Below are positions 7,880 to 49,668 of a stretch of DNA of 64,000 nt, piece after piece. The notes beneath the pieces were generated by a model that saw only the letters and a program-made list of their open reading frames with translations, was not told where the DNA came from and did no database searches. The DNA is from an uncultured Methanobacteriaceae archaeon (GTDB lineage: Archaea; Methanobacteriota; Methanobacteria; Methanobacteriales; Methanobacteriaceae): positions 890,475 through 954,474 of the forward strand of contig OY969914.1 of the NCBI GenBank assembly GCA_963704525.1. Direction: 5' to 3'. Position 1 is the stretch's first letter; every line of letters begins with the position of its first letter. Made by a program: the position numbers and the translations under genes.

Positions 7880-8410
7880 TCATTTATAATGAAAAATTTC
7901 ACCATCCTCAGCAATGTTATGTTTGGCAGATAAAACATTGGGAGTTATTCTGTAGACCGACGTTGCATTTCCATCCAGTGAAGAACGGTAGTTCTCCATC
8001 ATCTTAGCAGTTAATTTTTTTTGGTAGAATCCTGGAGTGTATTTTTCAACAAGTCTATTGAGTATGTTTGCTGCTTCTTCAAAATCAACAATCTTTTGAA
8101 CCTTTCCAAATAACATGACACTCATGTACGAAGTATCTGCATGACATGGCATAGGGTCTACTACTGTACCATATTCTTCGTATACTGTGAAGCATACCTC
8201 GGGTTCATTTGAAAGTATGATTTCCTTTTTTCCAGAACCTGCACCATGAAAAAATATTGAACCATCACACCATACGAAGTTCAGGGGTAAAGCATAGGGA
8301 GTGTTATCATCGTTCATTCCCAATATCCCCACCCTTGTACAACTTAAAAAATCGTCTATTTTTTGTTTATCCGTGCATTCTCTCTGTACATATCTAATCT
8401 TATTCATCAA
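7880..8410 (-). CDS. Pyridoxamine-5'-phosphate-oxidase-like flavin-binding protein, probable Anf3 homolog
   Basis: Split-barrel motifs PYALPLNF and IFFHGAGSGKK, plus PCHADTSYMSV. Last gene of the anf run, overlapping the stop of the upstream gene. The Anf3 assignment rests on family plus position. Confidence 0.7.
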   Translation of the reverse strand: MMNKIRYVQRECTDKQKIDDFLSCTRVGILGMNDDNTPYALPLNFVWCDGSIFFHGAGSGKKEIILSNEPEVCFTVYEEYGTVVDPMPCHADTSYMSVMLFGKVQKIVDFEEAANILNRLVEKYTPGFYQKKLTAKMMENYRSSLDGNATSVYRITPNVLSAKHNIAEDGEIFHYK

Positions 8411-9116
8411 AGCATCTCCTATCCTCTAATTTTTTTAGCTTTGTGAGGAAAATATTCATCCACTCATTGGCTTGTTTATTATATTCATAATTTAGAAGTT
8501 CATTTTTAGATTGAACATATGGACCCGGTAACATTTCATCTCCACACTTATCCACAAGGTCGCTGATAATTTTAGGGGTGATTTCTAAATGAAACTGAAA
8601 TCCAAACACCCTTTTATTGTATACAAATGCCTGATGACTGCAGGCATCATTTTCTGCCATACAAACTGCATTTTTAGGTAATTTACTGAATGTGTCCCCA
8701 TGCCAATGAAAAACGTTAGTATACTCTGGAAAAAAAGAATAAGTTTCGTAAGATCTTGATTCATCTGTGAAACGTACAGGAAACCATCCAATTTCTAGAT
8801 GAGGATTCTTTGTAACCTTTCCCCCTATCACATCTGCAATTAACTGACCTCCCAAACAAAAACCAATTATCAGCTTTCCAGCCTCAATAGCATTATGAAT
8901 AAATGATTTTTCCTTGGCAAGCCATGGATAATTTTTTTCATCGTAGATATTCATTGGCCCGCCCATGATCACCAGCCAGTCATAATCGTTATGGCTTGGA
9001 AGATCCTCATCGTTAAATAAGAGTGTCTTTGTCACCTTGAAATCCTGCATCGCAGCCCAAGTCAGTATACTGCCTGGATTTTCGAAAGGAACATGCTGTA
9101 AGTAGTGAAGTCTCAT
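8400..9116 (-). CDS. Class I glutamine amidotransferase-like protein (anf-associated, possibly AnfR-like)
   Basis: HYLQHVPFENPG start, GGPMN, nucleophile elbow GFCLGGQL, HWHGDTF, QFHLE (Cys-His-Glu triad); follows anfK. Confidence 0.8.
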   Translation of the reverse strand: MRLHYLQHVPFENPGSILTWAAMQDFKVTKTLLFNDEDLPSHNDYDWLVIMGGPMNIYDEKNYPWLAKEKSFIHNAIEAGKLIIGFCLGGQLIADVIGGKVTKNPHLEIGWFPVRFTDESRSYETYSFFPEYTNVFHWHGDTFSKLPKNAVCMAENDACSHQAFVYNKRVFGFQFHLEITPKIISDLVDKCGDEMLPGPYVQSKNELLNYEYNKQANEWMNIFLTKLKKLEDRRCFDE

Positions 9117-9296: not shown

Positions 9297-10685
9297 TTAC
9301 CATACATTAAGGATCCATTCCTTATTCTTTTTATATTCCATGTCTGTAAACAGTACATTTGCCATTTCTTCTGCAAGCCAGATTGCACCTGCATATCCCA
9401 CAACAGGGTGTCTGTAATATCCTGCACGATCATAAACAGGAAAGCCCACACGTAGCAATGGTATGTCATTATCTATGGCTATGAAACGACCTTTTGAATG
9501 ACCAATTATAAGGTCGATTTCTACTTCTTTATTTTTTATCCTGCTTTCAAGATCCCATAGATCTGCATTTTGGATTATCTCCATATCGTATTCAATTTTC
9601 TCCTGAAATTCAATTATTCTAGGATCTTCAGAATATTTTGTAGTATCATCACCCAAAAGAAGTAAAACAGGTTTCATTTCAAGATCCAGACAAAATTCTG
9701 CCAATCCTATGACTAGATCAGGATTTCCATAGATCGCAACCTTCTTGTCTGCAAAGAACATGTGAACAAGATCTGTGAGTGCATCGATGGCTATGCCCCG
9801 TTCACGTACAAGTGATTCTGGTATTGGTTTGCCTGTCATTCTCCTTATATTATTTAAAAATGAGTCTGTGTTACGGATACCTATGGGTGTGGGCCCAATT
9901 ATTGAAGGAACCTCAAACTCTCTTTCAAGAAATTCTGCTGCCATTTTGCCCTCGTATCTATTGAGTACAATCGTCCCAATCGCATCTCCTGTGGATTCTA
10001 GATCCTTTATTGTGGTGCCACCGTAAGAAACAGCATCTCCCTTAGGCATCAGGGGAGAATCAAAACTTTCTGTTTCAAACAGCACAGTAGCATCCACGTC
10101 CATCTCTGATAGAAGATGTTTAAGTGCTGTTACATCCCCAGGATTAACCCATCCAGTTATAAGATTGATTTTCCCGTTTGGTTCTAATTTTTTAGCAAAT
10201 TCCTTTACAAAATCCTTTACTGCAATATCATAACCACTCACCATGCTTCCTTTAAAACTTGGAGTGCTAATTGAAATTAGGTGAACTTCACGATCTGCAT
10301 ATTTCTCCTTTAAGAGTCCGTTTTTGAGTTTTCTAATAACTCCTTCCACATCGTCTCCAATTATCTCAGTTGAGCAGGTTGAAATAATAGGAACAACTTT
10401 TACTTCAGGATATCTCATTAAAAGTACATCAACAGCCTCTTCAATACGGTGAGTTGCACCAAGTACAGCTGTATCTTCGTGTAAGGAAGACGATGCTAGG
10501 AGGAAATTTTCCTTAAAGTGCTGTGCAAATAACAGGCGTACAAACATGACACAACCTTGTCCTCCATGGACTATTCCAATACAATCTTCCACCCCTATAC
10601 TGACATACTGAGCTCCTGCAGGCTGGCAGGTAAATATTGGGTTGATGATACCGGATCTTTCTTTCTTTTTCAGTTCGCACGATAT
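9297..10685 (-). CDS. anfK: Fe-only nitrogenase beta subunit
   Basis: Frame extends upstream of the tracked GTG (10592) through (I)SCELKKKERSGIINPIFTCQPAGAQYVSIG to ATA at 10685 (462 codons plus stop). P-cluster Cys in FTCQPAG, HGGQGC and ISTC; ends WILNVW as in AnfK. Confidence 0.92.
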   Translation of the reverse strand: MSCELKKKERSGIINPIFTCQPAGAQYVSIGVEDCIGIVHGGQGCVMFVRLLFAQHFKENFLLASSSLHEDTAVLGATHRIEEAVDVLLMRYPEVKVVPIISTCSTEIIGDDVEGVIRKLKNGLLKEKYADREVHLISISTPSFKGSMVSGYDIAVKDFVKEFAKKLEPNGKINLITGWVNPGDVTALKHLLSEMDVDATVLFETESFDSPLMPKGDAVSYGGTTIKDLESTGDAIGTIVLNRYEGKMAAEFLEREFEVPSIIGPTPIGIRNTDSFLNNIRRMTGKPIPESLVRERGIAIDALTDLVHMFFADKKVAIYGNPDLVIGLAEFCLDLEMKPVLLLLGDDTTKYSEDPRIIEFQEKIEYDMEIIQNADLWDLESRIKNKEVEIDLIIGHSKGRFIAIDNDIPLLRVGFPVYDRAGYYRHPVVGYAGAIWLAEEMANVLFTDMEYKKNKEWILNVW

Positions 10686-10700
10686 AATAATTCCCCCTTT

Positions 10701-11051
10701 CTAATAACGTTTGACGGTGAGTTCCCTATTTAGAGACCCCGTTATAGTTAAATAATCAATTTTTTCCCTAAGTTTTTTAAGTAGCAATTTAATTTCGGTT
10801 TTGTTCATTTCAGAAATCCATGGATAGTTATTCTTGAAATCCATTGCCAGTACCATTGCTTCGGTCCAGTAATATTTATCTGTGGGAGTTTCTTTTTCAA
10901 CTGTCTCATCACACAGTATCTGCATGGTTTTTGTAAGGATCCCCTTGTTCTGATTTTTTCTGTCCCATTCACGGGAATTAAACTGCCACAAACACCATTT
11001 CATGATGTAGTCAACAAGTTGCTCTACTCTGTCCTGCATAATGTCTTCCAT
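10701..11051 (-). CDS. anfG: Fe-only nitrogenase delta subunit
   Basis: DYIMKWCLWQFNSREWDR and LTITGSLNREL are VnfG/AnfG motifs; GGGAG RBS before ATG at 11051 (track starts further upstream, at 11120). Confidence 0.92.
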   Translation of the reverse strand: MEDIMQDRVEQLVDYIMKWCLWQFNSREWDRKNQNKGILTKTMQILCDETVEKETPTDKYYWTEAMVLAMDFKNNYPWISEMNKTEIKLLLKKLREKIDYLTITGSLNRELTVKRY

Positions 11052-11086: not shown

Positions 11087-12715
<1,629 letters not shown>

Positions 12716-12816
12716 TTAGTTCATGTTTAAAAAAATTAAAAAAAATTCATCTACAACTAAGATCTGTAATTCAAACAAAATTCCCATTAGGGGACCTGTT
12801 TAAATACCGAATACCA

Positions 12817-12866
12817 GATTCTCCTTGATTTTTAACGATTAAAAAACCTTAAATTCAAGGGGAATC
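12817..12866. other. Stem-loop in the anfH-anfD spacer
   Basis: GATTCTCCTTGA (12817-12828) and TCAAGGGGAATC (12855-12866) form a 12-bp inverted repeat with one non-Watson-Crick position. Confidence 0.5.
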
Positions 12867-12949
12867 GGCTTCGATATGATATCTCAAATAAATTTTTCAT
12901 TTAAAAATCCCATAAAATGTTTATTGAATTCTCAATAATCACATTTATT

Positions 12950-13786
<837 letters not shown>

Positions 13787-32953: not shown

Positions 32954-33802
32954 ATTAGGCGAAAATTATTCTTATCAGGGATCTTGTTATTTAGTTTGTT
33001 GTTAGTTGTGAATTTCAATTATTCTGATGCAGCATCTGTTAATACAACAGCACCCCAGGTAAAGTCTGTTGACCCTGTTAATCATTCTATTATTAATAAA
33101 TATAAAACCATTAAAATTAAATTTTCTAAACCTGTCAAACTCGTGAAAAATTCCGCAATTCTTAAAAATAGTGCAGGAAAAACTATTTCTACAACCAATA
33201 TTGTCAAGAATAATTCCTTAACAATTTCACCAAGGACCAAACTGGCCGTGGGTAACTATTTCATAACAATTAATCCTGGAACAGTCGTTGACGCGAAGGG
33301 TAATTATAATAAAGCATTCAAATCCTGTTTCACAGTATCCCCAATTACACTTGCACAGATGAAGGATGGTAAATCCAGAGCAGATAAATTCTTTGCAAAG
33401 AATGGGAGACTTCCAAACTATGTGAGTTTTGGTTCGAAGAAAATATTGATAGGTGAATTTCAGAAGATACTTGCGACACAAAATTTGAAGATCAACAACT
33501 CAGTTATCAAATCCTGTAGTAAACTTGGAACAAAAAATTGTTGCGCATACAATATATCAGTATCCTCAAAAACTGTTTCATCCACATCTAAATGTTCATG
33601 TGGATCATGCGGGGATTATAATTACCATACAAGCACCTATAAAAACTACTGTCCCAACTGCGGAAAATATGAAACACTTGTATGGAATCCTAAAGGAGTT
33701 TATGAGGGCGAATGGACCTGCAGCAGCTGTGATTGTGATTACTGCGCAGCTTGTGGCAAAGAAAAAATTTACAGCAATCCCAAACACCTGATAAAAGCTT
33801 GA
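32954..33802 (+). CDS. Secreted Ig-like (Big_5) plus pseudomurein-binding-repeat protein with Cys-rich C-terminal zinc-ribbon domain
   Basis: VKSVDP..IKIKFSKPV Ig domain; FFAKNGRLPNYVSF repeat; 12 or more Cys in CxxC/CxC pairs. Start placed at ATT 32954 after GGAGGCGG (track: TTG 32984). Confidence 0.75.
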   Translation: MRRKLFLSGILLFSLLLVVNFNYSDAASVNTTAPQVKSVDPVNHSIINKYKTIKIKFSKPVKLVKNSAILKNSAGKTISTTNIVKNNSLTISPRTKLAVGNYFITINPGTVVDAKGNYNKAFKSCFTVSPITLAQMKDGKSRADKFFAKNGRLPNYVSFGSKKILIGEFQKILATQNLKINNSVIKSCSKLGTKNCCAYNISVSSKTVSSTSKCSCGSCGDYNYHTSTYKNYCPNCGKYETLVWNPKGVYEGEWTCSSCDCDYCAACGKEKIYSNPKHLIKA

Positions 33803-49413: not shown

Positions 49414-49668
49414 TAAAATAAACTTTATCGGATGTCTCGGATATACTTCATACTCAAAAATGCATGGATATATTATTAAATTGATATTTAAATTGTAGAT
49501 TAATATCAACTTTTTCTAAAATTGTTTTAGAAAAATGTAATAATGATAAATAATTATACTATTATATAAATTTTTTGAGAAGTCGAACATTTTTGATTAG
49601 ATAAACCCTGGGGTGTAAATATTATAGAACAAAATTTAGTTTCTATAAATAGAAGGAATCATAGTAAT

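Follow-up and report, generated by a model that had tools for sequence, protein, structure and literature searches.

The 64,000-nucleotide (nt) stretch of DNA analyzed here (hereafter, the window), taken from an uncultured Methanobacteriaceae archaeon (assembly GCA_963704525.1, contig OY969914.1, positions 890,475 to 954,474), harbors the anfH-anfD-anfG-anfK operon of the Fe-only nitrogenase, whose last gene, coding for the beta subunit AnfK, has no canonical initiation codon where the other members of the family have their methionine. According to the data discussed below, it is very probable that anfK is an intact gene maintained by selection and that its translation initiates at a near-cognate codon of the AUH type (AUA, AUU or AUC), that is, at the AUA located in positions 10685-10683 or, possibly, at the AUU one codon upstream (10688), which would yield a protein of 463 rather than 462 residues. 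Positions without a prefix refer to the window; those preceded by C1 refer to the contig of the whole genome (G000), and related genomes and loci are indicated by G and L codes. The host genome consists of a single contig of 2.39 Mb, and its nearest AnfK loci are those of Methanobacterium.

On the minus strand, the TAG stop codon of anfG (10703-10701) is followed by AAA GGG GGA ATT ATT ATA TCG TGC GAA CTG, where the ATA opens a frame of 462 codons closed by the stop in positions 9299-9297. The earliest in-frame ATG, GTG or TTG is the GTG at 10592 (codon 32), which lies past Cys20 of the FTCQPAG motif and would give a product of 431 residues; anfG and anfK share one frame and are separated by the TAG and five codons. 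The preliminary description of this region is thus borne out by the sequence in every detail, concerning both the lack of any ATG, GTG or TTG before the first P-cluster cysteine and the common frame of the two genes. The same is true for its statement that a start at GTG 10592 would drop the FTCQPAG cysteine (Cys20 precedes codon 32), while its placing of the ATA at the methionine position of a 462-residue protein, 6 nt after GGGGGA, is also sustained by the homology data that follow.

The predicted protein matches the NCBIfam AnfK equivalog TIGR02931 with 893.4 bits (cut-off 853.85), its residues 2-462 corresponding to profile positions 1-461 of 461, and it aligns to the AnfK chain of Azotobacter vinelandii of solved structure (8BOQ_B, E = 3.5e-239), the first residue of which falls on residue 2. 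Since both the first position of the profile and the first residue of the solved chain fall on residue 2, the ATA occupies exactly the methionine position of AnfK. In this alignment, the motifs FTC20QPAG, GGQGC45 and STC104STE are identical to those of 8BOQ_B, and we take the three cysteines to be equivalent to Cys70, Cys95 and Cys153 of NifK, that is, to be P-cluster ligands; Cys20 is included in the product only if translation begins upstream of GTG 10592. The AnfK proteins of A. vinelandii (PDB 8BOQ) and Rhodobacter capsulatus (8OIE) are collinear with the one described here over their full length (residues 2-462 versus 1-461) and share with it cysteines 20, 45 and 104, as well as the anfHDGK gene order; their genes, however, start with ATG, whereas that of the window has ATA.

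The comparison of this codon in related genomes, which the preliminary description had indicated as a check, revealed that the lack of ATG extends to the closest relatives. Among 80 species-level genomes, the codon at the methionine position is ATG in 76, TTG in one and ATT in two, the remaining one having an ATG a few codons upstream; the 78 metagenome contigs comprise 76 ATG and two ATT, and ATG occupies this position in 152 of the 160 other AnfK genes surveyed. ATT was found in seven independent assemblies (G012, G009, G024, G020, L130, L131 and L367), none of which has ATG; these are the closest relatives of the window (the Methanobacterium lacus group) and come from different projects and sequencing platforms, one of them (L367) being an M. 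lacus-type contig that encodes exactly the AnfK protein of M. lacus AL-21. In the AnfK tree, the window gene and the seven ATT genes form one clade with 100/100 support, in which the window gene (ATA) branches as the sister of the seven others (ATT). Since these eight genes fall in a single supported clade, the absence of ATG is inherited and not an accident of this assembly. A scan of the metagenome contigs for strain-level relatives carrying ATA found none closer than 91%; the ATA therefore rests on a single assembly and the ATT on seven.

The trees of AnfK and AnfD offer a side observation: the stem of the non-ATG clade measures 0.12 substitutions per site for AnfK versus 0.069 for AnfD, and within the clade AnfK evolves more slowly than AnfD. 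The longer stem may reflect a burst of AnfK change around the time at which ATG was lost. AnfD itself has 509 residues in the non-ATG clade and approximately 520 in other Methanobacterium.

The ratio of nonsynonymous to synonymous substitutions (dN/dS) of anfK between the window and the ATT group is 0.016-0.03, with a saturated dS of 1.8-3.7, and the 462-codon frame is open in every complete member of the clade. The part of the gene preceding GTG 10592 follows the same pattern, codons 2-31 differing from those of six clade members at 14-17 nt and at 0-1 amino acids. At codons 2-4 (Ser-Cys-Glu), changes such as TCT/TCG and TGC/TGT are observed, Cys3-Glu4 being retained through synonymous changes and the sole replacement being a Ser to Pro in L131, a residue that occurs at position 2 in other AnfK proteins too. 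The codons from which translation might canonically begin are not maintained in the same way: codon 5 is TTG in some members, CTG in the window and TTA in L131, and codon 32 is GTT in L131. Because codons 2-31 are conserved as protein, the start is confined to the five codons after the anfG stop plus the ATA; in other words, translation must begin between the anfG stop and codon 2, and the near-cognate candidates within this short stretch are ATT, ATT and ATA only. No ATG, GTG or TTG lies upstream of the protein-conserved residues, and the unusual start is retained among orthologs (eight assemblies, one clade) under strong purifying selection.

Among these candidates, the ATA is the one that is correctly positioned with respect to the Shine-Dalgarno (SD) element. 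The G-run with its following A (GGGGGA, 10697-10692) is separated from the ATA by 6 nt (ATTATT), which places the ATA 7 nt from the last G of the run. In the ATG genes of this genome, the distance between G-run and start has a sharp mode at 7 (126 of about 317), and few genes have a spacing of 4 or 1. In the sister group, the SD is GGAGGT, followed by six bases and then ATT, in a register common to all seven assemblies; ATG-type species have GAGGTGA. The two spacer codons (10686-10691) are ATT, ATC or GTT in the relatives and are not conserved as start candidates. What is found, then, is a near-cognate codon aligned to the start of the family behind an SD of normal spacing. As far as RNA structure is concerned, no excess of folding over shuffled sequence was found around the anfK start, the region being rather the less structured of the two (z = +1.38).

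The anfK gene does not seem to be an isolated case. Indeed, the comparative data point to a habit of the lineage, in which AUU, AUA or AUC placed behind a strong SD at the N7 spacing starts several conserved Methanobacterium genes. In a whole-genome scan for an SD plus a codon heading a long open reading frame (ORF) without a nearby canonical start, ATT (23) and ATA (18) lead, only modestly above other AT-rich codons, a result that is no more than suggestive. One example is a PHP-type histidinol-phosphatase-like gene (NF004981; C1:1186711-1187376, plus strand; loci L101-L129) that starts with ATT: counted from this ATT, the domains recognized by Pfam and NCBIfam begin at residues 4-6, and one has to go 106 codons downstream to meet a canonical start. 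Its start is ATT in 16 of the 17 Methanobacterium genomes and ATC in the other one, ATT or ATC in seven genomes of a second family (24 non-ATG genomes overall) and ATG in a third. The gene for methanogenesis marker 5 (TIGR03271; C1:2221916-2222368, plus strand; loci L369-L398) carries ATT behind GGGGGG-N7 in precisely those five genomes that make up the non-ATG anfK clade (G000, G009, G012, G020 and G024) and TTG in 25 other Methanobacteriales genomes; anfK and marker 5, formerly with ATG or TTG, both changed to ATT within this M. lacus-type clade. A coiled-coil protein gene (C1:1003690, plus strand) starts with ATT in both G000 and G009. Lastly, in a sugar transferase gene (CoA_binding_3 plus Bac_transf; C1:53540-54931, minus strand; loci L210-L221) ATA stands where 11 relatives have ATG or TTG, a canonical start being reached 20 codons further on; this substitution of ATA for ATG is unique to this genome and could be an assembly error. 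In all four genes, a strong SD precedes the start by 6-7 nt. A strict ortholog census of G000 versus 2.4 Mb of G009 retrieved only a few such genes out of about 1,770 pairs, a count to be read as a floor, since the strict filter misses the PHP gene and anfK; the starts of BLAST alignments were unusable as a criterion because they extend into conserved leaders.

Some further observations were made during this survey. Of the genes at C1:1930942 and C1:1479150 (both on the plus strand), one has CTG where G009 has GTG, and the other has TTT where G009 has TTG, together with an additional G immediately upstream. In the window itself, two surface-protein genes on the plus strand have a signal peptide that is sensible only from a near-cognate start, one at 32954-32986 (GGAGGCGG-N4-ATT) and the other at 49621-49626 (GGGGTG-N6-ATT ATA). 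A UbiA-like gene (C1:264229-264846, minus strand) considered as a further ATT example was discarded, its frame being of 207 codons versus about 310 in relatives; this UbiA-family paralogue, which has no canonical start, is probably a decaying or mis-assembled copy.

Regarding the mechanism, the SD would place the P site of the small ribosomal subunit over the AUA, where the initiator Met-tRNA would pair with the A and the U while tolerating the mismatch at the third base, and AnfK would then be a Met-initiated protein of the usual 462 residues. Ribosomes ending anfG 15 nt upstream would probably add to initiation by translational coupling. A sub-variant of this explanation assigns to coupling an essential role: only the ribosomes that have just terminated on anfG would re-initiate at the AUA, and the AnfK output would be tied to, and capped by, that of AnfG. 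This idea is in agreement with the short distance between stop and start (15 nt in seven members of the clade, 14 nt in L131), with the SD lying within the gap, and termination-reinitiation is established in archaea. However, the PHP gene faces a divergent neighbour across a gap of 74 nt, so AUU can be used in this lineage with no coupling; because that gene is the first of its unit, coupling is not a general requirement for AUU starts. We therefore regard a strict dependence on coupling as possible but rather doubtful. With respect to known cases of coupling, the anfK junction shares the short gap of 15 nt holding the SD, and differs in that classical coupling involves canonical starts, often overlapping the stop, whereas the anfK start is near-cognate.

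Several points weigh against initiation at a near-cognate codon and have to be set beside the evidence reported above. In E. coli, AUA and AUU initiate at about 1% of AUG or less, a level that fits poorly with anfK because AnfK is needed 1:1 with AnfD and AnfG. The SD of the window (GGGGG) is not stronger than in ATG-type relatives. Moreover, parsimony is compatible with the derivation of the ATA either from ATT or directly from ATG, and cannot tell one path from the other. As to archaeal initiation, aIF1 is stated to favour discrimination against non-canonical starts in the Sulfolobus system (PMC6237735); in Haloferax, ribosome profiling found about 30% of the putative alternative initiation sites to be near-cognate, but these were set aside (PMC7261190). 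In view of these two reports, in vivo near-cognate initiation in archaea seems plausible but poorly documented. Finally, 45 ORFs of G009 are split into collinear pieces in G000, versus 15 in the reverse comparison, and the load of errors or pseudogenes is therefore not negligible. It was also observed that 24 of the 45 split ORFs show a frame change and that in a surface-protein gene (C1:2383847, minus strand) the ATG and the rest of the gene are out of frame by one base across an A5 run; the split ORFs and the A5 case suggest that this assembly contains homopolymer errors or carries an increased load of pseudogenes.

Four options had been offered in the preliminary description for the apparent ATA start, namely non-canonical initiation, recent loss of function, sequencing error and G-K readthrough, and it is the first that our data favor; such a start might, as was suggested there, tune the level of the beta subunit. 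That base 10683 (C1:901157) is an assembly error and the true codon ATG might be suspected from the excess of split ORFs over G009 and from the second ATA-for-ATG start of this genome, that of the sugar transferase gene; nevertheless, the seven sister assemblies have ATT at the same codon and in no case ATG, so that a true ATG would call for a separate history together with an error at this exact base, and the alternative base expected from the relatives is T rather than G, which would leave the start non-canonical all the same. An error, sequencing or assembly, is accordingly very unlikely. We attach as little weight to the possibility that anfK is a start-less pseudogene and that the Fe-only nitrogenase is out of use, as might be imagined from the missing canonical start and from the presence of a nifK paralogue of the Mo-nitrogenase. 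The frame of 462 codons open in the complete members, the low dN/dS over a saturated dS, the conservation at the protein level upstream of any canonical start and the integrity of the whole operon all stand against it; in particular, a recent ATG>ATA loss-of-function change is contradicted by the dN/dS values, by the conserved N-terminal 30 codons and by a sister group that has no ATG either.

Even less credible is a start at a downstream canonical codon, be it GTG 10592 in the window or, in M. lacus, the TTG of codon 5, which is the choice made by gene callers and propagated in public databases: the AnfK model of this genome has 431 residues and starts at GTG 10592, the RefSeq model of M. lacus AL-21 has 458 and starts at the TTG of codon 5, and those of some metagenome contigs have 416 and start at a downstream ATG. 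A protein initiated at GTG 10592 would lose the P-cluster ligand Cys20; furthermore, codons 5 and 32 vary among the clade members, whereas codons 2-4 and 2-31, which precede them, are conserved as protein.

A similarly negligible probability is assigned to the idea that AnfG and AnfK are fused by read-through, or that the out-of-frame GTG at 10680 enters anfK by a +1 shift. A fusion might be suggested by the common frame of anfG and anfK in seven of the eight clade members and by linker changes at third positions, but two members end anfG with TAG and five with TAA, while L131 has a TAA-TAG tandem and its two genes also lie in different frames, and the first linker codon varies among K, E, N and Y. 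Neither of the features expected of programmed stop read-through, i.e., a conserved identity of the stop and a common frame in all members, is found, and the variable stop and the L131 tandem in a different frame contradict the G-K readthrough mentioned earlier. As for the frameshift, an NTG is present out of frame at the same place in all the members (GTG 10680 here, TTG or ATG in relatives), and in G020 and Methanobacterium sp. ERen5 an A7 run in place of A8 brings the TTG in frame; on the other hand, a TGA directly follows this NTG in G009 and L131, and neither the window nor L130 nor L131 has the A-run.

The A7 run deserves a separate mention. In the G020 locus (L004, around 1500-1515), A7 instead of A8 follows codon 5 of anfK, and MSCELKKK is replaced by MRIEKK, the resulting N-terminus MRIEKKERSG being that of UTB32053.1 from ERen5, whose public model of 460 residues starts at the out-of-frame TTG brought in by A7. 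The A7 may stem from a homopolymer error or represent a genuine way of regaining a canonical start.

The features of the locus are listed in Table 1.

Table 1. Elements of the anfG-anfK junction, genes of the anf operon and neighbouring genes (window positions)
Feature	Position	Strand	Basis
ATA, proposed initiation codon of anfK (Met position)	10683-10685	-	homology to the family ATG, SD spacing, TIGR02931
ATT ATT spacer, two further in-frame near-cognate codons (SD spacings 4 and 1)	10686-10691	-	
Shine-Dalgarno element AGGGGGA	10692-10698	-	register constant across Methanobacterium anfK
anfG stop TAG, 15 nt 5' of the ATA	10701-10703	-	sequence reading
anfK codons 2-31, absent from the public 431-residue model, with P-cluster Cys20 (FTCQPAG)	10593-10682	-	
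GTG codon 32, earliest canonical in-frame start, used by public annotation	10590-10592	-	
anfK, Fe-only nitrogenase beta subunit, 462 codons plus stop	9297-10685	-	Pfam Oxidored_nitro, TIGR02931, 8BOQ_B
anfG, delta subunit, 116 residues, ATG start	10701-11051 (stop included)	-	PF03139, E = 4.7e-48
anfD, alpha subunit, 509 residues, ATG start	11087-12616	-	Pfam
anfH, Fe protein, 275 residues, ATG start	12950-13777	-	PF00142, E = 4.7e-120
GATase	8400-9116	-	Pfam
PNPOx-like	7880-8410	-	Pfam

The four genes anfH, anfD, anfG and anfK, each with its Pfam match, lie on one strand, and their order is found again in the M. lacus-type contig. The 333-nt gap between anfH and anfD (12617-12949, minus strand) contains no operon-strand ORF of at least 50 residues. 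The nifI1 and nifI2 genes are not located within the anf operon, the M. lacus-type contig being laid out likewise, and the nifK paralogue resides elsewhere in the genome.

AUU starts are known in bacteria, where they have been described for infC, coding for IF3, and for E. coli pcnB, and ATT and ATA starts are permitted by genetic code table 11. The anfK gene resembles these two in having an AUH codon at the homologous methionine position behind an SD, in its conservation among orthologs and in being missed by gene finders. However, infC and pcnB are bacterial, while anfK is archaeal, with an initiation apparatus comprising aIF1, aIF1A and aIF2, and its codon is AUA rather than AUU; in addition, they code for dose-limited regulators, whereas anfK encodes a stoichiometric enzyme subunit with no sign of factor autoregulation. 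An infC-type autoregulation through aIF1 was considered and dropped, the aIF1 (SUI1) gene starting with ATG; within the genus, aIF1 proteins share 96-98% identity, their conserved core positions are unchanged, and nothing clade-specific stands out. With the PHP phosphatase and marker 5 genes, anfK shares the same SD-N7-AUH module. The AUH start of anfK was acquired recently, within one sub-clade of Methanobacterium, and is internal to an operon, 15 nt after a stop. Our search of the literature on ATT/AUU starts in Methanobacterium, Methanobrevibacter and Methanothermobacter found no paper on AUH starts in Methanobacteriales. One NCBI ortholog (MTK63391.1) is nevertheless modelled as a protein of 462 residues beginning with MSCEL, so that its first codon is the ATT found at this position.

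These findings have consequences for annotation. The public 431-residue annotation of the window AnfK is wrong, and the RefSeq model of M. lacus AL-21 (458 residues) and many metagenome AnfK models (416 or 458 residues) are similarly shortened. The 431-residue model is devoid of a P-cluster ligand, and surveys of nitrogenase integrity based on such models would misclassify these peatland methanogens.

A remaining question concerns what the anfK start might tell us about archaeal translation, a field in which the in vivo use of AUU and AUA is barely documented. A subunit required in 1:1 stoichiometry has kept a weak-looking start across saturated synonymous divergence; either AUH initiation is efficient in these archaea, or coupling and the SD compensate for its weakness, and either outcome would add to what is understood of initiation in archaea. 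The ATT form is available in culture, in strain M. lacus AL-21. In a more general way, and with a confidence that falls somewhat short of even, we suggest that in Methanobacterium, and most clearly in the M. lacus-type clade, AUU, AUA and AUC behind a strong SD at 7 nt represent a regular and evolvable class of start codons. If this were true, core genes with an ATG or TTG start could drift to ATT or ATA and keep it, the discrimination of the third base would be relaxed in the archaeal initiation complex in vivo, and the supply of AnfK would be set by the coupling to anfG and not by its own start codon.

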